A stretch of 64,000 bases of DNA from Trueperaceae bacterium (GCA_034520945.1 JAXHNB010000006.1:608001-672000); one strand, 5' to 3'. Shown: positions 31,621 through 62,977, numbered from the stretch's first letter. Program-made: numbers and translations. The notes: generated from the letters alone by a model not told the origin.

Positions 31621-31649
31621 GTGGTGGCCCCTCCCGGCTGTGGCGCCGC

Positions 31650-31822
31650 ATGTCGTTCCCCGACCGCTGGCTGACCGCCTGGATCTTCGCGGCGATGGCG
31701 ATCGGCGTGGCCGATCGGCTGGGCGGCGCCCGGCATCGGGGGGTTCCTCGACCGCCTCGCGGTCGGCGCGACGAACCTGCCGATCGCGATCGGCCTGATC
31801 GTGATGATGTACCCGCCGCTCG
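31650..31822 (+). pseudogene. acr3: Acr3 arsenite efflux pump 5' remnant
   Basis: [20 protein letters not shown] then, after a frameshift, [26 protein letters not shown]. Confidence 0.8.
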
Positions 31823-31959
31823 AGCGTCCGCCCGGTGACGAGCATCAGGACGAGCCCCGCTCGCCTGGTGTTGCGCAGGGCCTCCCAGGTCGCGGGCTCG
31901 ACCTCCCCGTCCCGCGCCAGGGTGCCATCCAGGTCGCACGCCAGGCTCTTGCGATACAC
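31819..31959 (-). pseudogene. HAD/Cof-family hydrolase 5' remnant
   Basis: [13 protein letters not shown]...[12 protein letters not shown], then homology is lost at the acr3 junction. Confidence 0.7.
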
Positions 31960-32180
31960 GGTCGCCTCACGAGGGCTTGTGGAGTCACCTCGGAGGACGG
32001 CGCCGATACCGGAGGGGGCGCGGCCGCTCCACCGGCAACCCCGTCGGATCCCGCACGCGACGGCTCGATGACCCACCGGCCGTAACCGCAGGCGCCCCAC
32101 CCTCTTCGCCGGGTGGGGCGCCGACTTCCTGCTTCTACTGATCCACCTCCATCCTTCCTCTGCGACGCAGTCGCCGGAGG

Positions 32181-33239: not shown

Positions 33240-33449
33240 GAAGATCCTCTCTGTGCAGGGCTCATCGGAGGTGGGGCGCTGCCACCGGACTCGCCTCGGG
33301 AGCGCGGCCCTGACAGAGCGCCTCGCGAGGAACGCTTCTTCTTCCCCAGCATCAGAATGCCGCGCGGTCGCAAGTTGTGTCAAGTAGTGCGCATTGACTC
33401 AAATAGAATCGTACCGAAGGGGTCTTGGATGACTCATAAGTAATTCCGA

Positions 33450-33597
33450 CCGTGGAGCTTCGACGTGGTGCTCACCGTCTGCGACGACGCGAACGCGGCC
33501 TGTCCCGCCTACTCGGCCTAGACCGCGCGGCTGCACGCGTCGTTCCCCGACCCAAGCGGGAGGGTCTCGCCACCTGGTGCGAGGCGCGCGACGCTCA
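33450..33597 (+). pseudogene. arsC: ArsC (LMWP arsenate reductase) 3' remnant
   Basis: FDVVLTVCDDANAACPAYSA*TARLHASFPDPSG; internal TAG at 33519; 5' half absent. Confidence 0.75.
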
Positions 33598-34038
33598 CTG
33601 CGAGCCGGGCCGCCCGATCCCCAGCTTCCGGTGCAACGCCAACATGCAGGCGTCCTGAACCACGTCGATCCCGGCCTCGGCCAGCTCGCGAGCCACCTCG
33701 TCGTGTCGAATGCCCTGCTGCAGCCACACCACCTTCGGGCGTGGTCGCATGGCCAGGATCTCGCTCAGGTGCGCGGGCAGGTGCTCGGCGCGCCGGAACA
33801 CGTCGACGACGTCGATCTGCTCGTCGAGGTCGGTGAGCGCGGCGCGCGGCGTCTCGCCGAACAGCACGCGGTCGGTGTAGACGGGATTGATCGGCAGGAT
33901 CCGGTAGCCGTGCTCGTGCAGGTACAGAGGCACGTAGTGGGCCGCCTTGCGGGGCTCGGGATGGGCGCCCAGCACGGCCACCGTGCGGGCGGTCTGGAGC
34001 ACGTTCCGGAGCGCTTCGTCGCTGGTGAGTACGGGCAT
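33595..34038 (-). CDS. CoA-binding protein (YccU-like)
   Basis: TVAVLGA, GYRILPINP, DVVDVFR, VVWLQQGI, VVQDAC. Confidence 0.92.
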   Translation of the reverse strand: MPVLTSDEALRNVLQTARTVAVLGAHPEPRKAAHYVPLYLHEHGYRILPINPVYTDRVLFGETPRAALTDLDEQIDVVDVFRRAEHLPAHLSEILAMRPRPKVVWLQQGIRHDEVARELAEAGIDVVQDACMLALHRKLGIGRPGSQ

Positions 34039-34064
34039 CGCGATACCTTCCTATCGCCGAAGGA

Positions 34065-34460
34065 TGTCAATTCTCATCAGCATGACTCACCTTTTCTCGC
34101 GAGCTTGACGCACCCCTTGGGTGATGGGGTTTTCCCATTTGCTTGACGCATGACGTAGGGGTGATGCGGTTTTCTCGTGAGCTTGGCTTCAGGTGCTTGC
34201 ATCTTCTGTCATCGTGCCTTCAGTTCCTGTCTGGAGGTGCCTGGTGGCGTATCGAGAGGTGAGCATGTGGGACGTGAAAACGGTGTTGGAGCGGTTGGGG
34301 CGCGGCGAGTCGCGCAGCGCGATTCAGCGTGCGACCGGCCATTCGCGGAGAACGGTCGCGCGGATCGAGGAGCGCGCCCGGGCGGAGGGATGGACGCCGT
34401 CGCCGGATTCGCCCGTGGAGGAGGGGTTGGCGGGCCGTGAGCTCACGAGGCGCATCTCTC
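34065..34460 (+). mobile_element. IS21-family left-end remnant with truncated istA
   Basis: TGTCAA terminus; four ~21-bp imperfect direct repeats; IstA-like N-terminus VAYREVSMWDVKTVLERLGRGESRSAIQRATGHSRRTV, then truncated. Confidence 0.75.
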
Positions 34461-34461
34461 T

Positions 34462-34752
34462 CTACATGTGCCTGTGGGGGTCCATCCGGTCATGAAGGAC
34501 GCGGACGATCTGAACTGCAGAGGGTGTGATCCGGTAGTAGATCGCATGGCGGTCGACGAAAAAAACGCGATACCCGTCGCGCACGCCGTCCCGTCTCACG
34601 CCCATCTCGGGCTGGAGCACGAGCTGCTGGATGGCAAGCCCGATCACATCGAGGTACGCATCCGCCTGGTCTTCGTTCCACCGCTCGGCGGTGTAGTGCC
34701 AGATGTCGATGAGATCCCGTTCGGCACGTCTCCGCAGGCGTGCGGTTCGCAT
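34462..34752 (-). CDS. parE: ParE/RelE-family toxin
   Basis: AERDLIDIWHYTAERW..QADAY, HAIYYR, IVRVLHDRMD. Confidence 0.9.
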   Translation of the reverse strand: MRTARLRRRAERDLIDIWHYTAERWNEDQADAYLDVIGLAIQQLVLQPEMGVRRDGVRDGYRVFFVDRHAIYYRITPSAVQIVRVLHDRMDPHRHM

Positions 34753-35003
34753 CAGGTGCTCGGTGTGGCTCTCGACCGTGCCTTCTTCTTGATGGATTCC
34801 ATGTTCACCTCACCGACGTCGCCGCTCTGCTCACCCTCGATGAGGGCCTGCCGTAGCGCTTCGACCCTGTTCTCGTGTTCCTCGAGCAGGCGGAGGCTGG
34901 CACGGACGACCTCACTGGCCGATCCGTACCGGCCGCGCTCGACCTGCCGGCCGATGAACTCGTCGAAGTGGTCTCCCAAGGTGACACTGGTGTTTTTCGC
35001 CAT
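34752..35003 (-). CDS. parD: ParD-family antitoxin
   Basis: [14 protein letters not shown]...[27 protein letters not shown]. Confidence 0.9.
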
Positions 35004-35559
35004 TCGCGAACCCCCTACGTGTACCAGCATATACCACGATTCGGTAGCGTAGCCCGATCGAGGGTCAAGCTCAAATCCGGTATCACCGCCGGTCGTAGCG
35101 TGGACGGAACCGCGGGTCGGCAGGCCATTGCAAGAGGACGAACACCCGTCGAACGCGCATCGGGCCTGATGCGTTGGTGCGCGTCAGTCTGGGCTGTGGG
35201 GGGAAAGGCCCGCTTCGTGGCGGGCGCCAGTCGGGGTTTTCGAGCGCAGTACGACCTTCGGTCCGCGCTGGTGCGTCGATAGGTACGACGCGTCGGGCTG
35301 CTCTTGCTCGCGTGGCAGGTGCGCCCGCCTCGCAGGGGGTGCCACAAGAGCTCGTCGCCTCACTCGCCAAGGGCGTGCACGCTCCTCCGTCGAACAACGC
35401 CGCCTGCGGTTCCGCCCCAAGTTGGCCTCGCGCTCGGAAGATCGCCGCCTTGCTCGGAAGCTGGTACGACGCCCGTCACGAAGACGCCGGCGACGGTTCC
35501 TTGAGTGACGGCTTTCCGACTCCGCAGCCTGACGACTCGCGTTCGCGGTCTCGCCTCGA

Positions 35560-36363
35560 TCACGGCACCAACAGCTCGAGCCCACCTCCGTCGATGGAAA
35601 ACCGCCACGCCACGCCCGGCCCGGTGGGGGCGTCCACGTCGCCCGCCTCGCCGGGCCGGTCGGTGACGAACCGCAGCGCCGTCCCGTCCTGGCGCCACAC
35701 CAGCGCGCGCACGTGCGGCAGGTACGGCCGGCCGCCGGGCTGCGCCACGTCGCCGCGGGCGCGACGCCAGGCCTGCAGCAGGTTCTCGCCGTCCAGGTGC
35801 GCCACCGTCCGGCCGGTCTCCGTGTCGTCGATGGCGAGCATCTCGCCCGAAGCGCGGGCCGTCCCCAGGGCGTACGCCAGGTAGCGGCCGGACGGGGACC
35901 AGGTCGGGTCTTCGAGGTCGCCGAACTTGGCGTCGTGGACCATGGTCACGGCCCCCGAGGCGGGGTCCAGCGTCCCGACCAGCGACACGGTGGTGAGCAC
36001 GGCGTAGCTGGTGACCGAGAACGCGACCCGCGCGCCGCCCGGGTGAACGGCGACCGCCCCGAAGCGGTCGAAGTCGGCGGCCTTCAGCGTTCGGCCCGCC
36101 AGCTCGGGCGCTTCGTCCAAGATCTCGTCGAACCGGGGGGCGGCCCACGTCCGCCAGTCGGCGACGGTCCAGCGAACCGTGTCCGCGTCGGGACCCGTCG
36201 TCACCAGGGTGCGTCCCTCGTCCGCCAAGCGGGCGGTCTCGATCCGGGGCGAGGCGTTCCCACCGGCGGCCGAGGCGACGGCGGACAGGAAGGCGAGCGC
36301 CGCGATCGCGAGCGTCAGGCGGATCGTGGTGCGACGGACGCCAAACCTAAGGGAGCGATGCAT
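35560..36363 (-). CDS. Secreted protein with PD40/TolB-like repeats
   Basis: Signal peptide; VHPGGARVAF and PTWSPSGRYLAY repeats. Confidence 0.7.
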   Translation of the reverse strand: MHRSLRFGVRRTTIRLTLAIAALAFLSAVASAAGGNASPRIETARLADEGRTLVTTGPDADTVRWTVADWRTWAAPRFDEILDEAPELAGRTLKAADFDRFGAVAVHPGGARVAFSVTSYAVLTTVSLVGTLDPASGAVTMVHDAKFGDLEDPTWSPSGRYLAYALGTARASGEMLAIDDTETGRTVAHLDGENLLQAWRRARGDVAQPGGRPYLPHVRALVWRQDGTALRFVTDRPGEAGDVDAPTGPGVAWRFSIDGGGLELLVP

Positions 36364-50673: not shown

Positions 50674-50687
50674 TTGACCTGCGTCAT
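50674..50687 (+). promoter_or_regulatory. CRP/FNR-type box
   Basis: TTGAC-CTGC-GTCAT centred 42.5 bp upstream of ATG 50723. Confidence 0.75.
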
Positions 50688-50722
50688 GGGTCGGCGCGGC
50701 GTGAGCCGGCAGACTGGGTGTC

Positions 50723-50941
50723 ATGACAGCGAACGCGTCCATCCCTTTCGAGTCCATCACCTCCGAAACCACGCTCAACGACGTCATCGCCGCCCAGCCT
50801 GAAGCGACCACCGTATTCGCCGCGCGCGACCTCGACACCTGCTGCGGTGGGGGCGCGACCCTCGCCGAGGCCTGCGCCGACGCCGGCGTGTCGCTCGACG
50901 ACTTGATGGCCGACCTCGGGCGCCTGTGGGACCGAACGTGA
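50723..50941 (+). CDS. Stand-alone DUF542 (ScdA/RIC N-terminal domain) protein
   Basis: VFAARDLDTCCGG..TLAEAC. Confidence 0.85.
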   Translation: MTANASIPFESITSETTLNDVIAAQPEATTVFAARDLDTCCGGGATLAEACADAGVSLDDLMADLGRLWDRT

Positions 50942-51279
50942 GCGTGCCGCCCGAAGGCGAGGCCGACACCGCGCTCGCCCACCACGACCTGCCCGCGCTC
51001 GCCCGGTACGGGGCGACGCGCGACGCCCAGATCCTCGTGGACGCGCCGGAGGTACGCATGGTGCTGTTCAGCCTCCAGGACGGGCAACGCGTCCGCGGGC
51101 GGGGCGAACCGCGGGTGCACATGATCTGCATCGAGGGCGAGGGCGAGCTTTGGGCGGGCGAACGCAGCGTGCCTGCGCGCGCGGGAAGCATGATCGGCTG
51201 CGGGGCCGGCGAGGCGCACGGCGCGCAGGCGGGCGACGGACGCTTCCTGGTGCTGGGCGTAATCACGCCGCGGCCCTGA
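50938..51279 (+). CDS. Small cupin-domain protein
   Basis: RMVLFSLQDGQ...ICIEGEG...EAHGAQA; GTGA coupling. Confidence 0.75.
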   Translation: MSVPPEGEADTALAHHDLPALARYGATRDAQILVDAPEVRMVLFSLQDGQRVRGRGEPRVHMICIEGEGELWAGERSVPARAGSMIGCGAGEAHGAQAGDGRFLVLGVITPRP

Positions 51280-51289
51280 ACGCGCGATC

Positions 51290-51703
51290 ATGATCGCAGC
51301 CACCCGTATTGCGCTCAGCGCGGGCGTCCTCTACTTCCTGATCTCCAACACGCTGGGCCTCCTGCTCGGCACCGGCACCGTGTCCCCCTCGTGGCGGCCG
51401 GCGCACGCCCACCTGAACCTGCTGGGGTTCGTGGCGATGATGATCTACGGCGTGGCGTACCACGCGCTGCCACGATTTCGGGGCGTGCCGATGCGCCGCC
51501 CGCACCTGGCGCTGGGCCAGGTGGTGCTGGCCAACGTCGGCCTGATCGGCATGGCCCTCACCTGGGGGCTGCGATGGGACGCCGCAGCCTTTGCGCTGTG
51601 GGGCGGCCTGTCCTGGTTGGCCAGCGTGCTGTTCGTGGCCCTCATGATGGAGGTGCTGTGGCGTCCACGGCCGGCCATCCCGTCGGGCGGGCGCCTACGC
51701 TGA
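51290..51703 (+). CDS. 4-TM membrane protein with HxH motif (heme-copper-oxidase-subunit-I-like repeat)
   Basis: AHAHLNLLGFVAMMIYGVAYHALPRF. Confidence 0.75.
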   Translation: MIAATRIALSAGVLYFLISNTLGLLLGTGTVSPSWRPAHAHLNLLGFVAMMIYGVAYHALPRFRGVPMRRPHLALGQVVLANVGLIGMALTWGLRWDAAAFALWGGLSWLASVLFVALMMEVLWRPRPAIPSGGRLR

Positions 51704-51737
51704 GTCGCTGGCCGTAGGTTTCGCGCCTCTTTCTCGG

Positions 51738-51770
51738 GCGCTGGGCCGGCCCAATGGGCCGGCCCAGCGC
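51738..51770. terminator. Perfect 33-bp inverted repeat between convergent genes
   Basis: GCGCTGGGCCGGCCCA-A-TGGGCCGGCCCAGCGC. Confidence 0.65.
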
Positions 51771-51830
51771 GTCGCGTCGTATCGCGGGTGGCGCAGTGTC
51801 CACGGGCCTACTCCGTTCGTGGGTCACGGG

Positions 51831-52577
51831 TCAGTCGTGGGCGTCCTCCAGCGAGGCCCCGTGCCATGCGTGCGGCCAGATCGCGCCGGTGGTGGCGTGG
51901 ACGCTGAGCATGCCGTCGACGCGCCCCTCGCGGCCGTAGTCGAAGGTGACGTAGCCTGGGAACGCCTGTCCGGCGAGGATCTCGGCGCCCGGCAGGAACC
52001 CCTTGAGGAAATCCTTCGCCAGGTCGCGCGCCGCCGCTTCGTCGTAGCGTTCCGCGGGCGCTGCGGCGTAGCCCATCCCGCCGGCGCGGTTCCACATCAT
52101 GTTGGGGCCCGGTTCGGGCGTCACCTGGCCGGTGTAGCGGTCGACGAGCAATTCCGCCAGCCCTCGGTCCTCGCCGTCCACGACCTGCGCGTAGGTGTGG
52201 TTCGCGAAGGGCATGACGTCGGCGATGCGCGCGTCGGGGCCGAACGAGGCCGCGGCCTCCTCCAGGCGTTCGCGCAGCAGCGTGTCGTCGAGCGGCGTCG
52301 CGCCGGCGGGCAACGTCTGCATCATGCCCATGCCGCCGCCCATCATGCCGCCGCCCATCATGCCGCGCGTGCCAGGGGCCATGCGTCCGGGGACCCGCTG
52401 GCCGTACCCCATACCGCCGTACCCCATGGCACCGTTGCCGGGACCCATGTGGTGGGCACGTTGGTAGCCGTCGTTCGTCCATGGTTGCGTGTTCGGGCCG
52501 TCCATCATGCCCTGGGCGACCACCAGTCCGAGGGCGAGGAGGCCGAGGGTGATCAGTAGCGTTCGTGTGCGGTTCAT
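51831..52577 (-). CDS. Secreted Met/Gly-rich protein (PepSY-like C-terminus)
   Basis: Signal peptide; GMMGGGMMGGGMGMM; PEPGPNMMWN; FPGYVTFD; WPHAWHG. Confidence 0.8.
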   Translation of the reverse strand: MNRTRTLLITLGLLALGLVVAQGMMDGPNTQPWTNDGYQRAHHMGPGNGAMGYGGMGYGQRVPGRMAPGTRGMMGGGMMGGGMGMMQTLPAGATPLDDTLLRERLEEAAASFGPDARIADVMPFANHTYAQVVDGEDRGLAELLVDRYTGQVTPEPGPNMMWNRAGGMGYAAAPAERYDEAAARDLAKDFLKGFLPGAEILAGQAFPGYVTFDYGREGRVDGMLSVHATTGAIWPHAWHGASLEDAHD

Positions 52578-52834
52578 GTCGTGTCCTTTCGCGTCAGTTC
52601 GCTCTTGCGACGTTCGAACTCGTCGCTGTCGATCTCGCCGCGGGCGTAGCGCTCGCGGAGGATATCGAGGGCGCGGTCGTCCCTCTCGCTGCTTTCGTTG
52701 CGGCCTCCGGTCTGCGACCGGCCTTGATCCAGCGCCCGTACCAGCCAGACGATGGCCAGGATCAGGACGATCCAGAACAGGATCATGCCGATGCCGCCGA
52801 AGCCGCCCATGCCCCAGCCGCCGTAGCCCATCAT
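52574..52834 (-). CDS. SHOCT-domain membrane protein
   Basis: GMILFWIVLI...ALDILRERYARGEIDSDEFERRK; GGAGAGGAG RBS. Confidence 0.88.
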   Translation of the reverse strand: MMGYGGWGMGGFGGIGMILFWIVLILAIVWLVRALDQGRSQTGGRNESSERDDRALDILRERYARGEIDSDEFERRKSELTRKDTT

Positions 52835-52954
52835 CGGACTCCTCCCTCCAACTCAGCGGTCTGCCAGGCGCCGGGCTCGACGCCGCGAACGTCGCGGTCG
52901 ATGCGCGCGCTTGGGATGGTGTTCGCACAGGTCTGCATGTGGACCTCCGTTCCG

Positions 52955-52969
52955 TACCCCATCGGGGTA
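52955..52969. promoter_or_regulatory. CsoR/RicR-type operator
   Basis: Perfect TACCCC-ATC-GGGGTA palindrome upstream of SHOCT gene. Confidence 0.7.
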
Positions 52970-53374
52970 TCTGCGTCGAGGATGCCCTGCCCGTGTAAAG
53001 CTGACGTCAAGGGCCGGACAAGCTCGGATGAAGTCGTCTACGCGTGCACCTGCCGGTTTCGTGCATGTTGGCGCCATGCGCCTGCCCCAGGCCCTGCTTC
53101 CGCGCGCCGCCGCTGCCGTTCACGGCGCCCGAGTCGCTGCACGACTGACGCAGGTTCCTGGCGGCGCCGGAGGACGCAGTGAGCGCCGTGCACACCACTT
53201 TGGGCAGCACGGGCGCGCCGATGGTGGTGCGGTTCACCTGGCGCGATTTGCAGCGTCTGACCAACCTGTGGGCGCTTGGGTTGCGGCTGGTGGGCACGGA
53301 TTCCATGCGCGCACCGATCGCGCTCCCCTGCAGGCGCGGCCTGCCGGCCTGCCGCGAGGTGGGCGTCCGCCTCG

Positions 53375-53641
53375 CTACTCGTTCGGGGGGGTCAGGTCCC
53401 GTACCTGGCGCGCATACTCCTCGTCGTCGATCTCGCCGCGCGCGTAGCGTCGACGCAGGCGCTCGTGCGCCCGCGCGTTCGCGTCTTCCTCCCGTGCCCG
53501 TTCCTTCTTGAGGCCGATGGCACGCATCAGCCGGTCGATTCCCATGACGGAGAGGATGACGAGCAGGGCGACGCCGAGCGGGGCGAATCCGCCCATGCCC
53601 CAGCCGTGGTAGGGAAGCATGGCAGCCCCGAGGATCATCAC
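53375..53641 (-). CDS. Second SHOCT-domain membrane protein (possibly degenerate)
   Basis: GWGMGGF...LRRRYARGEIDDEEY. Confidence 0.7.
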   Translation of the reverse strand: MMILGAAMLPYHGWGMGGFAPLGVALLVILSVMGIDRLMRAIGLKKERAREEDANARAHERLRRRYARGEIDDEEYARQVRDLTPPNE

Positions 53642-53749
53642 GCCCGCCCCCTCACGTGGCGCCCCCCATCAGCAGGTTCCGCCGGGTGTCGCGGGTGGAC
53701 GGGTCGAACTGCAGGCCCATGGAGAGAGTGTACGCGCCCTGGCCCGGCC

Positions 53750-54047
53750 ATCGGTCGGCCGGATCGGCGTGCAAGGGCTCGAGATCCACCGAGGCCACGC
53801 CGATGCGCGGCGTCATGGGTAGGGACTCGAGGTTCGGCAAGCGTTCGCAGTGTGCAAGCAGATCGTCGAGGGGCATGGCCCGTTCGATGCCGTTTCGCTT
53901 GTGAAGCAATGCGACCTCCCACACGCGAAGGGCCGACACCGCGATGCCGCTCTCAATGTGCGCCTGAATGGCCCGTCGGGCGGTTGCGCTCGGTTCGCGC
54001 GGTTCGCTCAGCCACCACAGCCAGGCGTGCGTGTCGAGGGCGATCAC
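53750..54047 (-). pseudogene. Truncated VapC PIN toxin without antitoxin
   Basis: IALDTHAWLWW...WEVALL...HADPADR, then the conserved LIxATA tail is lost. Confidence 0.75.
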
Positions 54048-54082
54048 GCGCTCGGTCGGCCGCCTGGCCCCTCCTGGACGCC

Positions 54083-55162
54083 TCAGGCGCGCGGCGCAAG
54101 GCGCTTCGGGTGCTGGAAGGCGAAGTCCTCGCGGAGGATCATGTCGAGCGTCTGTTCGATCGTGGGGCGGTCCCCCCAGTAGGTGCCGGCGTTGCAGAAG
54201 CGCACCACGCCCTCGGGGTCGATGATGACGGTCGTCGGGCGGTTCACGAACTCGCCGTGGACGGCGTACTGCAGCGGTTCGGTCCCGTACCGGGCACCGA
54301 CGGCGCCGGCCCGGTCCATGAGGTGAGGCCACCAGATCCGTTCGGTGTAGGCCTCCTTGAACCATTGCCGTGAGCCCCATAGCGTGGGTTGGATCTCGCG
54401 GCCCACCATGAGGCGAGCGCGCCAGGTGTCGTGCGCCTCGAGCGTCGCGAGCTGTACGCCTCGCTCCACGAACGCGTCGCGCATCTCCATCAACTCGGCG
54501 AATTCGCGGTGGCAGACGGGGCACCAGTCGGCGAACACCCACACCAGGACGACCCAAGCGCCGCGGGCGTTCCGCAGGCGCCACCTTCGGCCTTCGGTGT
54601 CGTCCAGCTCGAAGTCGATGGCGTGATGACCGGGTGCAGGGCGACCGAAGTGGTCTTCGTTCAGGGCCAGGAAGGCGTCGCGTTGGGCGTCCGAGCTGTG
54701 GCCGGCGGCCTCGATCTGCGCCGCTGCCAGCTCGAGCTGATGGCGGACGTCGGCGTGCGGTTCGGACGCGAGGCGTTCTTGCAGGAGCTCCAGGGACGGC
54801 GTCGCACCCATCTCGCCCAACGCGATGGCCCCGTACGCCCGGGCGACCGGTTCGGGGTCTTGGGCAACCATGCGTTCGAGGTCGTCCCGTGCCGCGTGCG
54901 CCCGGGCGATGCCGAGGGCGTACGCGGCGAGGCTGCGGACGTTCAGGTCCTCGTCGGCCAGTCCACTCGCGACGGCGTCGGGGTCGGCGAGCGCCCCCCG
55001 GATGAGGTCGCGGACGGCCAGGGAGCGCACGCGGCCGTCTTGATCCTCGAGATCGGCCACGCCCGGCTCGCCCAGCTCGCGGTCCACGGTGAAGGTGCGC
55101 CGTTCGGCCTCGAGGGGATGGAAGTCGTGCCGGCGGATCCGTTCGAAGGTGGCGGAAACCAT
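54083..55162 (-). CDS. HEAT-repeat + AhpC/TSA redoxin fusion protein
   Basis: VRSLAAYALG / ARAYGAIALGEMG repeats; DFEL.DTEG, ADWCPVC, RPTTVIIDPEG; ATG 5 nt after TACACT. Confidence 0.8.
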   Translation of the reverse strand: MVSATFERIRRHDFHPLEAERRTFTVDRELGEPGVADLEDQDGRVRSLAVRDLIRGALADPDAVASGLADEDLNVRSLAAYALGIARAHAARDDLERMVAQDPEPVARAYGAIALGEMGATPSLELLQERLASEPHADVRHQLELAAAQIEAAGHSSDAQRDAFLALNEDHFGRPAPGHHAIDFELDDTEGRRWRLRNARGAWVVLVWVFADWCPVCHREFAELMEMRDAFVERGVQLATLEAHDTWRARLMVGREIQPTLWGSRQWFKEAYTERIWWPHLMDRAGAVGARYGTEPLQYAVHGEFVNRPTTVIIDPEGVVRFCNAGTYWGDRPTIEQTLDMILREDFAFQHPKRLAPRA

Positions 55163-55342
55163 GCGTGAGTGTAGGCGACGCCCCGTTCTCGACCGCGTCG
55201 CGTGTTTGTCGGGCCCAGAAGGGGCTGGCGCGAGGGGGTCTGATCGACCGGCACCGCGTCGTTCGTCGTTACGAGCGTTGCAGTGCGCCCGTGGCGCTAC
55301 GGGCTGCAGGCGAATCCGATGAATCGTGCAAAGCTGTAGCGC

Positions 55343-55816
55343 ATGAGACCCATCCAGCGCCTGATCGGACGCGTACGTCACCCCATGGCCGAGCGGCACG
55401 CGCGCGGCAAGGGCATCGAGGTGCTTGCCGCCGAACTCGAGGCGTCCGGCCGCGCGCTGGACGCCCGCATCGCCGGAAAGCTGGACACGTCCGGGAACCG
55501 CGAGGCGCTGGCTCACTGGATCGGGATCGAGCGCTGGGGGCAGCGCCGCCTCCACGTGACGCTGGGTGAGCCCTTCCTCCAGGACGAACATCATTCCTAC
55601 CGGCCCGACATGGGGGAAGGGTTGACGGCGCTGCAGCGCGCCTTGGCCGAGACGCGCGCCGAGACGGTGGCGTTGGCACGCAGGCTGCAGAAGGAAGGTG
55701 TCGATCCCACCACGACCGTGCCGCACAACGATCTGGGCCGGCTGAGCGTGGCCGGCTGGCTGGCGTACCTGCGGCAACATCCGGAGCAGGAGGCGAGGGG
55801 GCGGCTGCGGGGGTGA
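55343..55816 (+). CDS. DinB-like four-helix protein
   Basis: LAHWIGIERWGQRRL, PHNDLGRLS..GWL.YL..H. Confidence 0.7.
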   Translation: MRPIQRLIGRVRHPMAERHARGKGIEVLAAELEASGRALDARIAGKLDTSGNREALAHWIGIERWGQRRLHVTLGEPFLQDEHHSYRPDMGEGLTALQRALAETRAETVALARRLQKEGVDPTTTVPHNDLGRLSVAGWLAYLRQHPEQEARGRLRG

Positions 55817-56023
55817 CCTCGGCGGGCCCGGACGCTCACGACCGACCTTGGGGCGTGTCCTCTTCCGCCAGCAGGCCGTCGATCGCCTGGAGCGCCCACA
55901 GGGTCCGAGCGAGCGTGGTTGACCTCGGCGGGCCCGGACGCTCACGACCGACCTTGGGGCGTGTCCTCTTCCGCCAGCAGGCCGTCGATCGCCTGGAGCG
56001 CGCGCAGGGTCCGAGCGAGCGTG
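55814..56023. repeat. Tandem duplication, 104-bp unit, period 106
   Basis: 55814-55917 vs 55920-56023 identical except 2 bases. Confidence 0.95.
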
Positions 56024-56427
56024 CCGCTGCCCAAGTGGTCGCCTAGCTCGCGATCCAGTACGGCCAGGAACGCGCGAACGTCCGCCATCATCCGTTCGCC
56101 CCGGTCGGTGAACACGATGCACTTCTGCCTGCCGGTGCCCTCACGTTGTTCCACGTATCCGGCGCGGGACAACTGCGCGACGGTCTTGCCCACCATCTGC
56201 CGGGACACACCGAGCGTGCGGGCGACGTCGGAGGCGACGTTCACGCCGCAGTCGAGCGTCCCCAAGAACTCGAGAACCGCTGGGGAGAGGTCCTCGTATC
56301 CTTTCTCCTGCAGGTGCTGGGCCGCGCGTGACACGATCCGTTCGTGGACGTCGGCGGTCGCGAACACGAGCGCGAGCGAGCGGCTCTCGACCATCGCCAC
56401 CCCGCGCTGTGTAAACCAAGTTGACAT
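55942..56427 (-). CDS. MarR-family regulator
   Basis: ASDVARTLGVSRQMVGKTVAQL...GYV...FTDRG. Confidence 0.85.
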   Translation of the reverse strand: MSTWFTQRGVAMVESRSLALVFATADVHERIVSRAAQHLQEKGYEDLSPAVLEFLGTLDCGVNVASDVARTLGVSRQMVGKTVAQLSRAGYVEQREGTGRQKCIVFTDRGERMMADVRAFLAVLDRELGDHLGSGTLARTLRALQAIDGLLAEEDTPQGRS

Positions 56428-56467
56428 AGGGCGCTCCGTCCGCTAGCCTGTGTCTACCAAGTTTACA
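56410..56467. promoter_or_regulatory. Two MarR-type operators flanking a TTGACA-N17-TAGCCT promoter
   Basis: TGTAAAC-CAA-GTTGACA (56410-56426) and TGTCTAC-CAA-GTTTACA (56451-56467). Confidence 0.75.
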
Positions 56468-56510
56468 TGCGGCCGCGGTTCCGACCCGGCGGCGTGGAAG
56501 GGGCCCGAAC

Positions 56511-57425
56511 ATGCACACCGCACGCCCATTACGCCACGCGCTGCTTGCCAACGCCACGTTCTCGCTGGTGATGGCGTCGCTGCTCGTCATTGCCCCCTCG
56601 CGTGTCGGGGACGCTCTGGCGCTCGACGCGCCCGGCCTCTTGCGGTTTTTGGGCTACGGGCTCGTCGTCTTCGGCGCGGACCTCGTGCACCAGGCCACCC
56701 GCGAGCGTGTCGCGACGTGGCGGGCGCTGTATGCCAGCGCCCTGGACGTCCTGTGGGTGGTCGGAACGGCGGGATTGCTGCTCGCCCGTCCCGAGTTGCT
56801 GTCCCTCAGGGGCGCCGTCGTGGCGCTGGCGGTCGCGGGGATGGTCGCCGTGTTCGCGGCTTGGCAGCTCTGGGCGATCGACCGAGCACACGCCGGTTCG
56901 AGCTCGGGTTTGCGCCGCCACTGCGTGGCCGTGCACGCAGACGTCTCGGCCGATGCCATGTGGCGCGTCTTGGGCGACTTCGGCCGCATTCAGCGCTTCA
57001 CGGCGAGTCTGGCCAGCTCCGAGATCCTGGGCGACGAGGATGCGGACGTCGGCGCTGGTGCGCCGATGCGTGGACGTGCGCGGCAATGCCTGGGAGGAGG
57101 CCTGCGTGGCCTACGAGCCCGGCAGCAGCCTCACGATGCGCTTCTTGGCAGAGGCGCCGGACGTTCCCTTCCCTGCGCGGTCCATGACGCGCGGTTGGAA
57201 TCTCGTTCCGGACGGCTCACGAACGCGCGTCGAGGTGTGGTGGGAACGGCGCCCCGCCCGCGCTACGCCGCGCCCGTGCTCATGCCCCTCTTCGCCTGGC
57301 GGGCCGACCGGGCGATCCCGGAGGTGGTGCGACGCATGACGCAGGCCGCCAGGGGTGCCCGAGGGGTCGAGGCCTCGCGGCGCGGGGTTCGCCGCTTGGC
57401 GCGGCCCCTTCCGCGTGCGTGCTGA
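56511..57425 (+). pseudogene. Membrane + SRPBCC fusion with two compensating frameshifts
   Basis: 4-TM N-terminus; SRPBCC core (VRRCVD...WEEAC..YEPG...GWNLVP) lies in another frame between ~57055 and ~57250. Confidence 0.7.
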
Positions 57426-57447
57426 CCGAGGACACGTGCTCCCTGCG

Positions 57448-58176
57448 CTACGCGGCGCAACCGTCGTCGTCGCAGGCCGCCCCGTGCTCGCCGAGCGTCT
57501 CCAGCGGCGCGCGTTCCTGCCAGGTGCGGCGCAGCGCCTGCAGGATGGTGTCGGCCGGTTGCGCGCCGGGAAGGCCGTAGCGGCTGTCCAGCGCGAAGAA
57601 CGGCACGCCCGTGATGCCCAGTCGGCGGGCGCGGGTTTCGTCGGCGCGCACGTCGTCGGCGTGCGCGCCGGAGCTCAGGGCCTCGCGCACCTCGTCTGCA
57701 GGGACGCCGACGTCGTCCAGCAGCTCCACCAGCGTGTCCGTGTCGGAGATGGCGCGGGCCTCGGTGAAGTATGCCCGCAGCAGGCGTTCCTTGGCGTCGT
57801 CCTGCAGGCCGTGCTCCTGGGCGAGGTGCAGCAGGCGGTGCGCGTCGAAGGTGTTGCCGCGCTGGGCCTGGTCCAGCCGGTAGTCCAGCCCCTCGGCGGC
57901 CGCCAGTTCGGTCACCTGCTGGTTCATGGCGGCGGCGCGCTCGAGGCTGACGCCGTACTTCTCCGCCAGGTGCTGCTCGAGGCCCACGCGGGCGTGGGTC
58001 GGCGCGTCCGGGTCGAGCTCGAACGAGCGCCAGACCACGTCGACGGCGTCCGCATGCTCGAAGTCCCGGAGGGCCGCTTCGAAGCGCCGCTTGCCGATGT
58101 AGCACCAGGGGCAGACGACGTCGGACCAGATCTCGACGGTGAGGTGCTCGGTAAGGGTGGGGGCGCCGTCGTTCAT
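57448..58176 (-). CDS. frnE: FrnE-type DsbA-family oxidoreductase
   Basis: WSDVVCPWCYIG, SFELDP, NTFDAHRL, GVPFF, C-terminal ACDDDGC. Confidence 0.88.
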   Translation of the reverse strand: MNDGAPTLTEHLTVEIWSDVVCPWCYIGKRRFEAALRDFEHADAVDVVWRSFELDPDAPTHARVGLEQHLAEKYGVSLERAAAMNQQVTELAAAEGLDYRLDQAQRGNTFDAHRLLHLAQEHGLQDDAKERLLRAYFTEARAISDTDTLVELLDDVGVPADEVREALSSGAHADDVRADETRARRLGITGVPFFALDSRYGLPGAQPADTILQALRRTWQERAPLETLGEHGAACDDDGCAA

Positions 58177-58266
58177 GGGGAGAGTGTACGGGTGGGCGGG
58201 CGAGGGTGGCGTCGGCTCGGGTGCTTGTAGATTCACTTCACGCGTACCACGAGGGTACGGCTCTCC

Positions 58267-58500
58267 TTAGGTTTTGCCTATGCGGACGCGCCAGAGTTCG
58301 GGTCCGGATTCGAGGTACTCCCATTCGAGCAGGCCGGGGCGTTCGGCCTGGAACTGGTAGTACAGCGGCTTGGGATCGTGGTCGTTGACCAGCTCGTACG
58401 CTTCGCCGGGCGAGAGGTCGTCGAAGCGTTCGAACAGCAGGGGGTGGCGGTCGCGCGGTGGGATTTCCCGCACGTCGATGCGTTCCTTCGGATCGGCCAT
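58267..58500 (-). CDS. DUF2249 protein
   Basis: DVREIPPRDRHP...LVNDHDPKPLYYQF...YLESGP..WRV. Confidence 0.9.
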   Translation of the reverse strand: MADPKERIDVREIPPRDRHPLLFERFDDLSPGEAYELVNDHDPKPLYYQFQAERPGLLEWEYLESGPELWRVRIGKT

Positions 58501-58625
58501 GATGAACCTCCGGGGTCGTGGGGTGCATGTAGGTGTCGTTGCTCTTGAGGGATCGTACGCCGAGCACGGTGAGCGTGCCGGCGCCAGCGATGAGCGCTTT
58601 GTGCTCGCCTTGGGCGACGTGCACC

Positions 58626-59903
58626 TGGACCTCCCCCGGGGCCGTGGACCGGGCTTGGGCGCCTTCGGTCATGCGGGCGCCGTCCTGCGAGCGTACTGGG
58701 TTTCCCACTCCGCTGGGGTGAGCATGCCCAGGGTGGAGTGGCGCCGACGCTGGTTGTAGGTCACCTCCAGCCAGAAGAAGATCGCGGTTCTCAGTTCCTC
58801 CTCGACCGCCACGCGTGGCGGTCGAGGAGTTCCGTCTGCAACGTCGCGAAGAAGCTTTCCATCACCGCGTTGTCGTGGGGGCTTCCCCGACCGCTCATGC
58901 TGCCCACCAGGCCGAACTGGGATAGCGTCTCGCCGAACCGGATCGAGGTGTACGCCGACCCGCGGTCGGAGTGGTGGATGAGACCGCCGTTCACGTCGTG
59001 CCGCCCTGCGGCCATGCTGACGGCGTCGACGACCAGCTCGGTGGAGGCACTGTCGCCCATCGACCAGCCTTTGATCCGTTTCGATGCCGCATCGAGGACG
59101 GCCGCCAGGTACAACCAGCCGTCGTCCGTAAGGTGCTGCGTCACGTCCGCGTACCAAACGCGGTTGGGCTCCTCGACCTCGAAGGCGCGCTGCACCAGGT
59201 CCGGCGCGACGCGCTCCGCCAGCGAAGCCTCCTGCGCCTTCCTGCGGCCCTGCTTGCGGCGGTGCACGCCCTGCAGGCCCGCGGTCCGCATCAGGCGCTC
59301 CACGCGCTTCCTGGAGACGTACCAGCCGTGCTCCAGGCGCAGCTCGGCGTGCACCCTGGGCGAGCCGTACGTGCCGTCCGACGCCTCGTGAATCTCACGG
59401 ATCACGCCCAACAGCTCATCGTCCTCCTGGGCCCTCTGGGACGGCGGGCGGTCCCGCCAGGCGTAGTACCCCGCCCGAGCAATGTTCAAGACGCGGCACA
59501 TGGTCCTGACGCTGTGGTTCGCCTTCTCCGCATCGACGAACCGATACACGCTTACCGCGTGCGATCGGTCGTCCGTCGCGAAGAAGGCTGCCGCCTTTCG
59601 TAAGATCTCCCGTTCCTCACGCAACAAGCGATTCTCGCGCTTCAAACGGCGAATCTCCGCGCTTTCCTCGACCGCCTGCGGGTTCTCCTGGACTTCGGCG
59701 TCCCGCACCCACTTCCGGATCGAGTACGCGCTCACGTCGAGTTCCTCCGCCAGTTTCCGGAAGCCCTTGCCACTCTCCCGGTAGAGGCGTACGACCTCCT
59801 GTTTGTACTCGCTGCTGTACCGCTTGGCCATTCGGACCAGTCCCTTCCTTCCCGAAACCTACCAGGAAGCAGTCACATGGTCCACGAGGCAGGGGGAACT
59901 CCA
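58626..59903 (-). mobile_element. IS3-family insertion sequence (1278 bp) with 3-bp target duplication ACC
   Basis: Imperfect terminal IRs TGGACCTCCCCCGGGGCCGTGGAC / TGGAGTTCCCCCTGCCTCGTGGAC; ACC on both flanks. Confidence 0.92.
58669..59831 (-). pseudogene. IS3 transposase (OrfA-OrfB fused in frame; frameshift near 58800)
   Basis: KRYSSEYK, YGSPR, WYADVT, HHSDRGS, DNAVMESFF; C-terminal YNQRRRHSTLG in another frame. Confidence 0.88.
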
Positions 59904-59909
59904 ACCACG

Positions 59910-60155
59910 TCACCCTCGGGGGCGCGTGAGGATCTCCTCGAGTTCTGCGTACAGCGCGTGCGCCTGCGTTTCGCTCAGGCCTCGGATGCGGATGGCTTGC
60001 TCCAGCGTGACGGTCGCCGCCAGCGCGCTGCGCATGACGGGGTTCTGCAGCGGCGTGAATCCGTGGCGCACCAGGCAGGGCAGCACCTCGGGGGAGCGTT
60101 CCAGCAGGGTCGAGACGCGCGTATGCGCCAGCGAAGCGGGAGGGTCGGCCGTCAT
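59910..60155 (-). CDS. DUF1858-like small protein
   Basis: VSTLLERSPEVL..LVRHGFTPLQNP.MR...TLEQA. Confidence 0.75.
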   Translation of the reverse strand: MTADPPASLAHTRVSTLLERSPEVLPCLVRHGFTPLQNPVMRSALAATVTLEQAIRIRGLSETQAHALYAELEEILTRPRG

Positions 60156-60191
60156 GCGCGTCACCGTGGCCGAGCCCAACGGCGCCTCGCT

Positions 60192-60205
60192 ATGACCGAG
60201 GTCAA
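60192..60205 (-). promoter_or_regulatory. CRP/FNR-type box
   Basis: TTGAC-CTCG-GTCAT (minus strand) centred 43.5 bp upstream of ATG 60155. Confidence 0.72.
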
Positions 60206-60825
60206 ACGCCGCGCAGGGAGGCGGTGTCCATATCGGCCGGTTCACCGCCGTTCTGGCTGCGCTGCGTTCCCACGACCTCGCTCACGAGGCGGTCGCACCA
60301 CGCATCCAGCAGCTCGTCCACCCGCTCCTCCTCGCCGTCGTAGTTCAGCAGCAGGCCCACGAACATGTCCCCCCGCAACGCGCGGGAGTCCTCGAAGTCG
60401 TAGCCGGCGTGCGGCCACGGCGCCACCAGCGTCGCCCCCGCCGCTTCGAAGCGTTCCGCGACGATGCCGAGGGCGTCGCCGAAGGTGTCGGGATAGAAGA
60501 CCGGATCGCCGGCACCGAAGAGGGCGACGCGCACGCCCCGGAAGTCCTGACCCGTAAGCTCGTCCAGGCGGTCGTCCCAGTCGGCCTGCAACAGCCCGAT
60601 GTCCCAGGTGGGGACACCGAGCGCAAGCACGTCGTACGACGTCAACGTGGCCGGTTCCACGACCCCCACGTCGAGGCAGGGCACTTTGGCGTCCAGCCGT
60701 CGCTCCAACCGCTCGGTGAGTCGCTTGGCGGCGTCCTCGGTGTTGCCCGAGGTGCTGCCGTACACCACGGCCATGCTGGGCGTCTCAGGAACGGTCGTGC
60801 GGGTCGGATCGGAGGAGGACGCCAT
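60202..60825 (-). CDS. Long-chain flavodoxin
   Basis: YGSTSGNTEDAA, LGVPTWDIG, VALFGAGD..YPDTF.DA, GYDFEDSRA. Confidence 0.92.
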   Translation of the reverse strand: MASSSDPTRTTVPETPSMAVVYGSTSGNTEDAAKRLTERLERRLDAKVPCLDVGVVEPATLTSYDVLALGVPTWDIGLLQADWDDRLDELTGQDFRGVRVALFGAGDPVFYPDTFGDALGIVAERFEAAGATLVAPWPHAGYDFEDSRALRGDMFVGLLLNYDGEEERVDELLDAWCDRLVSEVVGTQRSQNGGEPADMDTASLRGV

Positions 60826-60860
60826 GCGTGGCAGGATAGCGGCCCTCCCGCCAGGGCGCC

Positions 60861-60874
60861 TTGACGCAGGTCAA
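60861..60874 (-). promoter_or_regulatory. CRP/FNR-type box (perfect)
   Basis: TTGAC-GCAG-GTCAA centred 42.5 bp upstream of flavodoxin ATG. Confidence 0.8.
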
Positions 60875-60996
60875 GTTCGCCCGGTCGCGCGCCCGGGGGG
60901 CGGTCGCTGGACGAGCGCAGGTACGACGCGGCGGTTTCGACGCAGCCGCACGCGGGGCGGGCCTTCCGTGGAGGAGCGCTCCGGGTTGGGCAGGGC

Positions 60997-61010
60997 ATGA
61001 CGTGCGTCAT
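60997..61010 (+). promoter_or_regulatory. CRP/FNR-type box
   Basis: ATGAC-GTGC-GTCAT centred 42.5 bp upstream of ATG 61046. Confidence 0.72.
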
Positions 61011-61045
61011 GGCCCCGGCACGCGCTTGCAGGCTAGGTTCACCGC

Positions 61046-61294
61046 ATGAGTGACACCGTCGACGAGGTGCTCGACAATCGCGGCCTCGAACCCCCCATGC
61101 CGATGACGCGCACGCTGGAGGCGTACGAGGGCCTTGCGCCGGGCGGCCGCCTGCGGATCCACAACGACCGCGTGCCCATCTACCTCCTGCCACAACTAGA
61201 GGAGCGCGGCGCCCGCTTCGAGATCGACGAACAGGTTGATGGCAGCGCCTTCGTCACCATCACCAAGCCCGAGGGCGACGCGGCGGCGCGGTGA
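61046..61294 (+). CDS. DUF2249/SirA(TusA)-like protein
   Basis: LDNRGLEPPMPMTRTL...IHNDRVPIYLLPQLEERG. Confidence 0.85.
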   Translation: MSDTVDEVLDNRGLEPPMPMTRTLEAYEGLAPGGRLRIHNDRVPIYLLPQLEERGARFEIDEQVDGSAFVTITKPEGDAAAR

Positions 61295-62637
61295 CGTCCG
61301 CGCTTGCTGGGGGCAATGCCGTCCCTTTCGTGGTTCCGCTGCGCTTCTTGCTGAGTGGCGCCGTGGCCCTGGCTGCGTTCTGGACGGCGCTCGTGTTGCG
61401 TCCCAGCGCTGCGGTGGGGTACGCCGCCGCGCCGGATACGTTGGCGTTGGTGCATGTGCTCACGTTGGGGGTCGGCACGCTGGTGCTGGTGGGTGCCATG
61501 CATCAGTTGGTGCCGGTGCTGCTGGTCACGCACCTCTATGCTCCCGGGTGGGGGTTGGCGACGTTCCTGGGGTTGGGTGTGGGTTCGTTGGCGGTGGTGC
61601 TGGGTTTCGCCCTCGGGTCGCGCCCGGCGTGGTTGGCGGTGGGTGGCACCGTGGCGTGGCTGGCCGTCACGCTGTTCGTCCTGAACGTCGGCCTCACCGC
61701 CGCCCGCGTAGCGCGCCTCGACGCGCCCGCCGTGACGCTGCTGGTGGCGACGGCGTACCTGTGGTTGACGTTCACGCTGGGGACGCTGCTGGCGCTGGCG
61801 CGCGTCTGGCCCGCCCTGCAGGCGGCGCTCGGGTACGCCACGCCCGTCCACCTCTCCTTCGGCCTGCTTGGCGCGTTCGGGCTGGCCATCGCCGGTGCGG
61901 GCCATAAGCTCCTCTCGATGTTCACTCTGGCGCACGGTGTGCGCCTGGGCGCGCTCTGGGGCGTCCTCGGCTTCACGGTGGCCGGGACGGTGCTGCTGGT
62001 GGTGGTCACCTGGGGTCCCGCCGTGGGGTTCGGCGGCGGTCCGGGGGCGCTTACCTACGCCGCGTCCTGGGGGGCGCGCCTCGCCTTCCTGTTCGGGGGC
62101 GCGTGCTACGCCCTGGACGTCCGTCGGATCCTGCGCGCCCGCATACGCCGCAACCCGGACGTGGGCGTGCGGGGGTTCCTGGTCGGCATCGCAGGGTTCG
62201 TGCCGGCGGCGGCGGCGATGCTGGCGGGGCGCATCGACGTCGCGGTGACACTGGTGTTGGTGGGCGTCGTTCCGCTGGCCATCGCCGGCATGCTCGTCAA
62301 GATCTCGACGTTCCTGACCTGGCAGCACCGCTACGCGCGATGGGTGGGTCGCAGCCAGACGGGGCGGGGCACGCCGATGCTGTCCGACATGATCCGGCCG
62401 CGCCTGGGGTGGGTCACGATCATGGGCTTGGCGGCGGGGAGCCTGCTGGTGGCACTGGCGCGATTGCTGGACAGCGAAGCCGTCGCGGGCATTGCTGCCG
62501 TGCTGGGCGCCGTGGGCGCCTGGGCGCTGCTGGCGCACGTGGCGTGGATCGTCTTCGCCGAGCATGCGCCGAGCGGAGCGCAGGGCACGCCCCCCGCTCC
62601 GCCGGTGGAGAGGAGACAGGATGTCCGACCTTCGTGA
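61291..62637 (+). CDS. ~12-TM membrane protein with conserved His (NnrS/oxidase-subunit-I-like repeats)
   Basis: HVLTLG...GAMHQLVP; HLSFGLLG...GAGHKLLSMF; GMLVKISTFLTW. Confidence 0.78.
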   Translation: MTSALAGGNAVPFVVPLRFLLSGAVALAAFWTALVLRPSAAVGYAAAPDTLALVHVLTLGVGTLVLVGAMHQLVPVLLVTHLYAPGWGLATFLGLGVGSLAVVLGFALGSRPAWLAVGGTVAWLAVTLFVLNVGLTAARVARLDAPAVTLLVATAYLWLTFTLGTLLALARVWPALQAALGYATPVHLSFGLLGAFGLAIAGAGHKLLSMFTLAHGVRLGALWGVLGFTVAGTVLLVVVTWGPAVGFGGGPGALTYAASWGARLAFLFGGACYALDVRRILRARIRRNPDVGVRGFLVGIAGFVPAAAAMLAGRIDVAVTLVLVGVVPLAIAGMLVKISTFLTWQHRYARWVGRSQTGRGTPMLSDMIRPRLGWVTIMGLAAGSLLVALARLLDSEAVAGIAAVLGAVGAWALLAHVAWIVFAEHAPSGAQGTPPAPPVERRQDVRPS

Positions 62638-62977
62638 CGAGATTCGGGGTGACGTCGCCGTCACCGAGATGAACCCCAGCGTTGATCCGCAGGAGGTGGT
62701 GCGCGGCATGGCGAGCGTCATCGATCCCGAGCTGGGATTGGATGTGGTGTCGCTCGGCCTGGTGTACGAGGTGCACGTGGTGGGGGGTGATGTGACCGTC
62801 ATCATGACGCTCACCACGCCGGGATGCCCGCTGCACGGCATCATCAGCGCCGACGCCAGCGAGAAGGTCGGCGCGCTGCCGGGCGTGGACAGTGTCGATG
62901 TGCAGCTGGTTTGGGATCCGGCCTGGACGCCGGACATGATCTCAGAGGAGGGCAGGAGCAAGCTGTTCTGGCTGTGA
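62621..62977 (+). CDS. DUF59 metal-sulfur cluster assembly factor (SufT/PaaD-like)
   Basis: VIDPELGLDVVSLGLVY, MTLTTPGCP, VWDPAWTPDMIS. Confidence 0.92.
   Translation: MSDLRDEIRGDVAVTEMNPSVDPQEVVRGMASVIDPELGLDVVSLGLVYEVHVVGGDVTVIMTLTTPGCPLHGIISADASEKVGALPGVDSVDVQLVWDPAWTPDMISEEGRSKLFWL

Follow-up and report, generated by a model that had tools for sequence, protein, structure and literature searches.

Four copies of one palindrome stand before genes of small, uncharacterised proteins in a 64,000-nt stretch of the genome of a Trueperaceae bacterium (hereafter the window; C6:608001-672000 of a 3.47-Mb, 10-contig genome, GC ~70%). This raises the question of which protein reads the palindrome and what task the genes behind it share. 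The comparison described below indicates that the boxes are probably promoter sites of a DnrT-type activator of the CRP/FNR family encoded on another contig (C9:134091-134762), and that the set would be the Trueperaceae counterpart of the DnrT system of Thermus.

Palindromic boxes and their position at promoters

The pattern TGACNNNNGTCA (TGAC-N4-GTCA) has four matches in the window, at 50675, 60193, 60862 and 60998, where 0.73 (sd 0.92) would be expected; at least four matches were reached in one of 100 dinucleotide shuffles of the window. All four sites are flanked by A/T on both sides. Box 1 (TTGACCTGCGTCAT, 50674..50687) is centred 42.5 nt upstream of the ATG at 50723(+), box 2 (ATGACCGAGGTCAA, 60192..60205) 43.5 nt upstream of the ATG at 60155(-), box 3 (TTGACGCAGGTCAA, 60861..60874) 42.5 nt upstream of the ATG at 60825(-) and box 4 (ATGACGTGCGTCAT, 60997..61010) 42.5 nt upstream of the ATG at 61046(+). 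Note that box 2 overlaps the stop codon of the flavodoxin gene. The distances were counted both on the printed sequence and by script, and positions and distances came out the same as in a preliminary description of this locus, which had also stated that each start lies 6-7 nt after a -10-like hexamer and has no ribosome-binding site. The hexamers CAGACT (50710..50715, + strand, with a spacing kept in relatives), CACGGT, TATCCT and TAGGTT indeed end 7, 7, 7 and 6 nt before the ATGs at 50723, 60155, 60825 and 61046, respectively, and no GGAGG-like stretch was seen by eye in the 14 nt preceding any of these codons. The base directly before all four is C.

A scan of the genome for the pattern at -42/-43 from starts was performed. 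It contains 36 TGAC-N4-GTCA sites, just 7 of which carry A/T on both flanks, while base composition predicts 2.1 of the latter; 6 of these 7 are located 40.5-43.5 nt upstream of the starts of open reading frames (ORFs) with high GC content at third codon positions (GC3). Two of the six are outside the window, in the same divergent region of contig C2 (C2:211671 and C2:211827). The seventh site, C2:348187, is not accompanied by a start codon 38-48 nt away in either direction and reads as lying inside a coding region. A position weight matrix (PWM) was built from 34 sites in relatives, whose consensus is CC(A/T)TGACC(Y)(R)GGTCA(T/A)GG, and it assigned 21.4, 16.4, 24.3 and 24.1 bits to boxes 1 to 4. 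Scores of at least 14 bits were found at 8 positions of the genome, namely the 6 boxed promoters, C5:2981 and C6:235028. Sites with one mismatch (n = 147 genome-wide) are mostly deep within open frames. Two further matches to TGAC-N4-GTCA, C2:63529 and C2:80623, are 17 kb apart and have identical flanks and ORF patterns, which suggests a duplicated segment.

Conservation of the box was followed through the operon behind box 4, which encodes a DUF2249 protein, a 448-aa membrane protein and a DUF59 protein. Homologues of the 448-aa protein were found in 90 of the 364 genomes of the phylum, among whose members are also Meiothermus, Calidithermus and Thermus. By family, they occur in 49 of 127 genomes of Trueperaceae (f1), 34 of 68 of f4, 3 of 23 of f3, 3 of 125 of f2 and 0 of 19 of f5. 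The scan of relatives with the family alignment A1 as a query yielded 45 loci; the single membrane protein as a query yielded none. The 29 Trueperaceae loci compared (L008-L036) are the best 29 of the 89 other genomes with a match. In all 29 of them the operon itself is kept and a perfect WTGAC-N4-GTCAW box stands beside it, usually between the DUF2249 operon and a divergent DUF1858 gene. In seven loci of other families, Thermaceae and others, the box is perfect in six and has one mismatch in one. The conservation in Deinococcota orthologues that the preliminary description had named as a check is thus present.

The geometry is conserved as well. The box centre is 41.5-43.5 nt from a start codon on both sides in 17 of the 29 Trueperaceae loci, on one side in 11 and on neither in 1, while at 11,600 random positions such spacing was found on at least one side in 8.0% and on both sides in 0.16%. 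In the 17 loci a single box is placed exactly midway between two divergent start codons ~85 bp apart. Examination of 42 box-proximal starts revealed NANNNT with a 6-7 nt spacer in 41 and C at -1 in 41; a Shine-Dalgarno-like core was found in 5. From the conserved -10 spacing and the C(-1)/R(+1) pattern we infer that transcription probably begins at the start codon, with the box ~42.5 nt upstream. Because of this distance, a bound dimer would contact RNA polymerase as at class II FNR/CRP promoters. The class II regulon of the preliminary description agrees with these boxes, which resemble functional FNR/DNR-type sites, and with the class-II-like geometry of the leaderless-looking promoters. Its further proposal that units about 10 kb apart belong to one system is consistent with the conservation of the box across the phylum and with the relative G016, in which all the boxed units, together with the flavodoxin and Rrf2 genes, form one cluster. 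As for box 3, flavodoxin orthologues have a box of at least 13 bits within 200 nt upstream in 20 of the 29 loci.

The candidate regulator and other possible readers of the box

As the preliminary description stated, the regulator gene is not in the window. Six proteins of the genome have an HTH_Crp_2 match that reads as a CRP/FNR-type helix-turn-helix, and two of them contain an FNR-type E--SR recognition helix, namely the proteins encoded at C9:134091-134762 (VPELASR) and C2:211873-212631 (PESVSR). The C9 protein consists of cNMP_binding and HTH_Crp_2 domains. The gene of this type directly adjoins the operon in 6 of 7 loci analyzed more widely (G016, G018, G020, G319, G324 and G346), and an orthologue was found in 47 of the 49 Trueperaceae genomes with the membrane protein; the CRP/FNR-family gene sought is thus most readily placed on contig C9. 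The solved structures of FNR, DNR and CRP match the C9 regulator by sequence. It scored far below every cut-off of the NCBIfam FNR, FixK, FtrB and CRP models, and no N-terminal cysteine cluster was found in it. Its gene overlaps the end of an Rrf2-family gene of NsrR type (C9:133636-134094), and the pair is predicted to be co-transcribed. The major facilitator superfamily (MFS) transporter whose gene neighbours that of the regulator in relatives resembles MdtG rather than NarK.

The regulon had been presented as undescribed, and this cannot be maintained, since the same palindrome has been published for denitrification promoters of Thermus thermophilus. In the available text of Alvarez et al. 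(2017, PMC5748679), the palindrome CTTGACCNNGGTCATGG is given for PnirJ, PnorC, Pnrc, PnsrR and PnsrS, and it overlaps the DnrT footprint. A review (PMC7694296), in the part available, reports DnrT bound at approximately -43 on a sequence containing CTTGACCCCGGTCAT, gives the bound string as CCTTCACCTTACTCCTTGACCCCGGTCAT and describes recruitment of RNA polymerase. The drpAB genes (DUF2249; DUF1858 with two DUF2249) are DnrT-dependent in Thermus according to the accessible portion of Chahlafi et al. (2018, PMC6282519), and the excerpted 2017 paper describes nsrS and nsrT (ScdA_N, cupin) in the nsrRST cluster.

Comparison with the Thermus genome G248 revealed the same elements. The C9 protein and the protein at the DnrT position of this genome are each other's best match (44% identity over 213 residues), and the latter is taken to be DnrT from its position as described in the available part of PMC6282519. 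Its gene comes after a GAF-BTAD gene and is divergent from narC-narG-narH-narJ-narI as well as two MFS genes. Downstream of the latter genes, a boxed DUF2249 gene (drpA), a gene for DUF1858 with two DUF2249 domains (drpB), four-helix COX1-like and protoglobin-like genes, a second box, a gene for a 383-aa homologue of the membrane protein and a DUF59 gene were found in this order. It is the dnrST / nar / drpAB layout published in PMC6282519, as far as that text is available. The protoglobin-like gene is situated between the neighbour of drpB and the boxed membrane-protein gene. The Rrf2 protein of contig C9 is 48% identical to its best match in G248, whose gene is followed by genes for an ScdA_N protein, a cupin (66% identity) and a four-helix protein (60%). 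In the Thermus cluster (L167:4734-6064; L070:7520-8796) the Rrf2, ScdA_N and cupin genes are thus followed by a fourth, four-helix COX1-like gene; three small proteins are described in the excerpted 2017 paper.

Several observations weigh against the DnrT-type reading of the boxes. No box was found at the promoter of the regulator's own rrf2-CRP operon, and the second E--SR paralogue could share the sites. Nine of the 29 flavodoxin loci have no box of at least 13 bits. Before the ScdA_N-cupin(-four-helix) operon of nine relatives, the box is perfect in three, a 12.6-bit site in two and only a half-site, in the same place, in four; the gene starts in relatives are crude GC3-based calls. NarI, a respiratory nitrate reductase and an orthologue of DnrS (GAF-BTAD) were not found in the genome, the last being represented by partial BTAD matches only (27-31% identity), and no box was found upstream of its two nirK genes, the cd1-type gene and the COX1 genes (scores of no more than 6.1 bits), so that the tie of the regulon to nitrogen oxides in this organism is indirect. 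In addition, the available text of PMC5748679 assigns the palindrome to NsrR(Th) by gel shift, while DnrT gave no shift.

The last point leads to another possible reader, the NsrR-type Rrf2 regulator itself, which would bind the palindrome as an activator and leave the CRP protein an accessory or upstream function. NsrR(Th) shifted PnirS, PnirJ and PnorC fragments, and PnorC without the palindrome was not shifted (PMC5748679, in the part available). The Rrf2 protein of this genome is related to the one that precedes ScdA_N-cupin in Thermus, its gene overlaps the start of the CRP gene, and orthologues were found in 45 of the 49 Trueperaceae genomes with the membrane protein. However, the CRP orthologue is present in G042 (one contig, 99% complete), G173 and G343, whereas their Rrf2 matches are just 23-29% identical. 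As G042 and G173 were seen to carry a box next to the operon, the box is not accompanied by an Rrf2 orthologue wherever it is kept. In family f3, an Rrf2 orthologue was found in 0 of 23 genomes against 21 of 23 for CRP. As a rule, the Rrf2 gene maps to a different contig or at a distance from the operon, whereas the gene for CRP adjoins it; Rrf2 occurs in 83 of the 127 Trueperaceae genomes, the operon in 49. Finally, class II promoters of the FNR/DNR type are characterized by TTGA-N6-TCAA near -42, in line with the DnrT position of about -43 in the review cited above (PMC7694296, in part). Thus, the retention of the box and CRP without a close Rrf2, the motif type, the E--SR helix and the gene position favour a DnrT-type protein as the probable reader. 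An activator role of Rrf2 at the box is unlikely; it may still co-bind or act upstream.

A reading in which the second FNR-type paralogue (C2:211873-212631) recognizes all or some of the boxes, notably those of the flavodoxin gene and the C2 locus, is quite improbable. The paralogue would do so by itself or downstream of the DnrT-type protein, in a cascade such as ANR-DNR or FixK2-NnrR. This protein also has cNMP_binding and HTH_Crp_2 domains. A perfect box stands 40.5 nt before its own start, which follows TAGGCT at a distance of 6 nt, and its gene diverges from a boxed DUF1858-cupin-DUF2249 operon; moreover, homologues of its type adjoin the flavodoxin gene in L139, L148 and L152 (genomes G318, G319 and G292). 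However, its orthologues at E<=1e-30 were found in just 4 of 60 relatives, while the box stands beside the operon in every Trueperaceae locus compared. No box was found upstream of the three orthologues for which upstream DNA could be inspected (L004-L006), and the C2 type is absent from G016, G018, G020 and G005, all of which have the box. The C2 gene, considered as the main regulator for its own box, was dropped because of this rarity and because a paralogue of C9 type lies beside the operon. That the four matches and their spacing arose by chance, in a GC-rich genome where start codons and ORFs abound and an occasional shuffle reaches four matches, is refuted by the excess of A/T-flanked sites, their spacing from starts, the two-sided geometry and the retention of the box in orthologous loci, and can practically be dismissed.

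Boxed genes and their possible role

The genes were listed in the preliminary description as DUF542, cupin, DUF1858, DUF2249, flavodoxin and DUF59 genes, and Pfam agrees, the Cupin_2 match being weak. Under the DnrT-type activator, box 1 would switch on unit 1. It comprises genes for a 72-aa ScdA_N/DUF542 protein resembling NsrS (50723..50941, +; PF04405, 1.2e-13), a 117-aa NsrT-like cupin (50926..51279, +), which is the counterpart of the Thermus G248 gene after ScdA_N mentioned above, and a 137-aa four-helix membrane protein (51290..51703, +), corresponding to the gene after nsrT in G248. The last protein represents one unit of the haem-copper-oxidase fold and matches positions 341-398 of the COX1 profile below the cut-off.

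Unit 2, behind box 2, would begin with an 81-aa DUF1858 protein (59910..60155, -; PF08984, 6.1e-12) that matches the N-domain of DrpB, and its operon has been interrupted by an insertion sequence (IS). An IS3-family element directly downstream of the DUF1858 gene split a cupin gene, and a DrpA-type DUF2249 gene is now cut off from the boxed promoter. The transposase ORF of the element (58791..59831, -; Pfam HTH_21, rve and HTH_Tnp_1) is not a member of the regulon. Beyond it, tblastn revealed a 3' remnant of the cupin gene (58538..58675, -; 57% identity to residues 63-107 of the C2 cupin) and an intact gene for a 77-aa DrpA-type DUF2249 protein (58267..58500, -; 79% identity to the C2 paralogue). 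Since these two lie beyond the IS, the unit was formerly DUF1858-cupin-DUF2249, with the composition of the boxed operon found elsewhere in the genome (C2:210821-211633). Another DUF2249 gene pair is located at C2:265223-265662, with 58% and 40% identity to the two types and no box of at least 14 bits nearby.

Unit 3, behind box 3, would be the gene of a 207-aa long-chain flavodoxin (60202..60825, -; Pfam Flavodoxin_1; NCBIfam FldA-like, below cut-offs). Unit 4, behind box 4, would include genes for an 82-aa DUF2249 (TusA-like) protein (61046..61294, +; PF10006, 6.2e-17), the 448-aa 12-helix protein of oxidase fold (61291..62637, +), whose GTG start overlaps the DUF2249 stop, and a 118-aa DUF59/FeS_assembly_P protein (62621..62977, +), whose gene overlaps the end of the 448-aa gene. 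The DUF59 domain was found by Pfam on a longer ORF, 62492-62977 (PF01883, 2.1e-21), and the NCBIfam SUF_assoc/SufT-like matches on 62621-62977 are below cut-offs. The two further boxed promoters, on contig C2, would serve the DUF1858-cupin-DUF2249 operon and the second FNR-type regulator.

The 448-aa protein has no Pfam match, COX1 included, and no NCBIfam match, and the profile A1 of its family found nothing at E<=1 among PDB sequences. Modeling led to a structure with high confidence (predicted local distance difference test (pLDDT) 89.7, predicted template modelling score (pTM) 0.89), which Foldseek matched to CcoN (3mk7, TM 0.66), cytochrome bo3 subunit I (CyoB, TM 0.65) and NorB (3o0r, TM 0.59). 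A catalytic subunit of a haem-copper oxidase (HCO) or nitric oxide reductase (NOR) carries six conserved histidine ligands for two haems and CuB/FeB. The model shares the 12-helix fold with these subunits but not the six-histidine set: H55 and H187 are the only invariant histidines among 13 sequences. For this reason, and because of the lack of a PDB sequence match, the 448-aa protein, judged from its residues, is not a catalytic oxidase or NOR. According to hhalign, the 137-aa protein aligns with residues 29-135 of the 448-aa protein (probability 91.8%). Pei, Li, Kinch and Grishin reportedly described HCO-homology (HCOH) proteins, including NnrS, in 2014. Both the 12-helix, two-histidine protein and the four-helix protein, which matches one third of it, would fit this description; no library model matched that would place them in a particular HCOH family.

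Complex prediction for the 448-aa and DUF59 proteins gave a score of 0.52 (best of three controls 0.00; partner pLDDT of at least 77; 63% of contacts or more common to the runs), a weak result from which no binding is claimed. In the calibration the mark was reached by 116 of 157 solved complexes and 2 of 215 mismatched pairs; at scores of no more than 0.60 there were just 18 of the 157 and both mismatches. On a contig labelled deltaproteobacterial (L081), a membrane-protein homologue is 45% identical to that of the window, as close as Trueperaceae relatives, which suggests transfer or mis-binning.

Regarding the physiological role, two copper nitrite reductases (NirK) above the equivalog cut-off, one cd1-type gene and two oxidase-type COX1 genes were found in the genome, and canonical NorB was not found in it. 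An apparent nirK box, GTGACGCTCGTCAA at C2:102728, was rejected because of its position within the reading frame of nirK. The preliminary description connected the set with nitrogen-oxide or low-oxygen physiology, which fits the Thermus literature; the metal-cofactor repair that it proposed derives from family names and was not upheld. A tie to nitric oxide (NO) would follow by analogy from the orthologous Thermus islands, from the induction of DUF2249 genes during Haloferax denitrification, as given in the available part of PMC11218638, and from the presence of NirK. The signal may be low oxygen or NO, entering via the co-transcribed NsrR-type Rrf2 protein, which would set the level of the regulator. 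The role might be to cope with NO from the two NirK enzymes by protecting or servicing haem and Fe-S centres, and the system would be the counterpart of accessory genes of the Thermus nitrate/nitrite respiration islands.

A wider interpretation can be offered only tentatively, its chance of being right in all parts being rather low. In it, the palindrome assigned to NsrR(Th) would be the DnrT site throughout Deinococcota, and one dimer midway between divergent leaderless starts ~85 bp apart would fire both promoters. The core, namely DUF2249, a copper-less two-histidine haem protein of oxidase fold, DUF59 and flavodoxin, together with ScdA_N-cupin, would form a flavodoxin-fed membrane system that handles NO or repairs NO-damaged metal centres, independent of nitrate respiration and serving a NirK-containing organism.

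Two other features of the window are reported here. A long ORF at 54083-56122(-) encodes HEAT repeats and a C-terminal AhpC/TSA (redoxin) domain, and the GC3-based call backs only its 3' 359 codons. At 30001-36000 GC falls to 0.64-0.67 against ~0.71 elsewhere.

Comparison with known systems

Among the systems compared, the ScdA_N domain of the 72-aa protein is common to RIC/ScdA/YtfE proteins. In contrast to these, the 72-aa protein lacks the di-iron hemerythrin-like C-domain, and its match is confined to positions 2-50 of the 216-position RIC model, far below the cut-off; a separate cupin is encoded next to it, as in Thermus NsrS/NsrT. The class II activators DNR, NnrR and FixK of proteobacteria share with the Trueperaceae system the 14-bp TTGA-N6-TCAA palindrome (for FixK2, TTGA/C-N6-T/GCAA; PMC6710368) and the E--SR helix. 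The Trueperaceae arms differ in being extended to CC-WTGACC, and the regulator in having no N-terminal cysteine cluster.

The most similar system is the Thermus DnrT regulon (nitrate-respiration element NCE and nic cluster; Cava and Berenguer). The palindrome and, approximately, its distance from the start are shared, as are an orthologous CRP-family regulator and orthologous targets of drpA/drpB and nsrS/nsrT types, plus adjoining oxidase-fold and DUF59 genes. The Trueperaceae system differs from that of Thermus in several respects: a common transcript is predicted for the regulator and an NsrR-type Rrf2 gene, flavodoxin belongs to the conserved members, the parts of DrpB are encoded by separate small genes, and the leaderless-looking promoters frequently face both ways from a single box. 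A DnrS orthologue and NarI were not found here, and the box stands on no reductase gene examined.

Thermus already provides the box, the type of regulator and a number of the target families, so that this is not a new kind of system. Its significance lies elsewhere. Comparison of the genomes speaks for the CRP-family DnrT protein rather than Rrf2 as the reader of the palindrome, a question left unsettled in the available parts of the Thermus papers. The regulon comes without a respiratory nitrate reductase and DnrS, as far as searched, which suggests that the job of the Drp-like, Nsr-like, oxidase-fold and DUF59 proteins is independent of nitrate respiration. In addition, a compact set of six promoters with fixed geometry is offered for the study of class II activation at leaderless promoters, also where one box would serve both directions. 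Thus, on comparative grounds, the regulon represents the DnrT system of Thermus in Trueperaceae, where it is not coupled to nitrate reductase or DnrS, takes in flavodoxin and relies on leaderless-looking, often two-way promoters.

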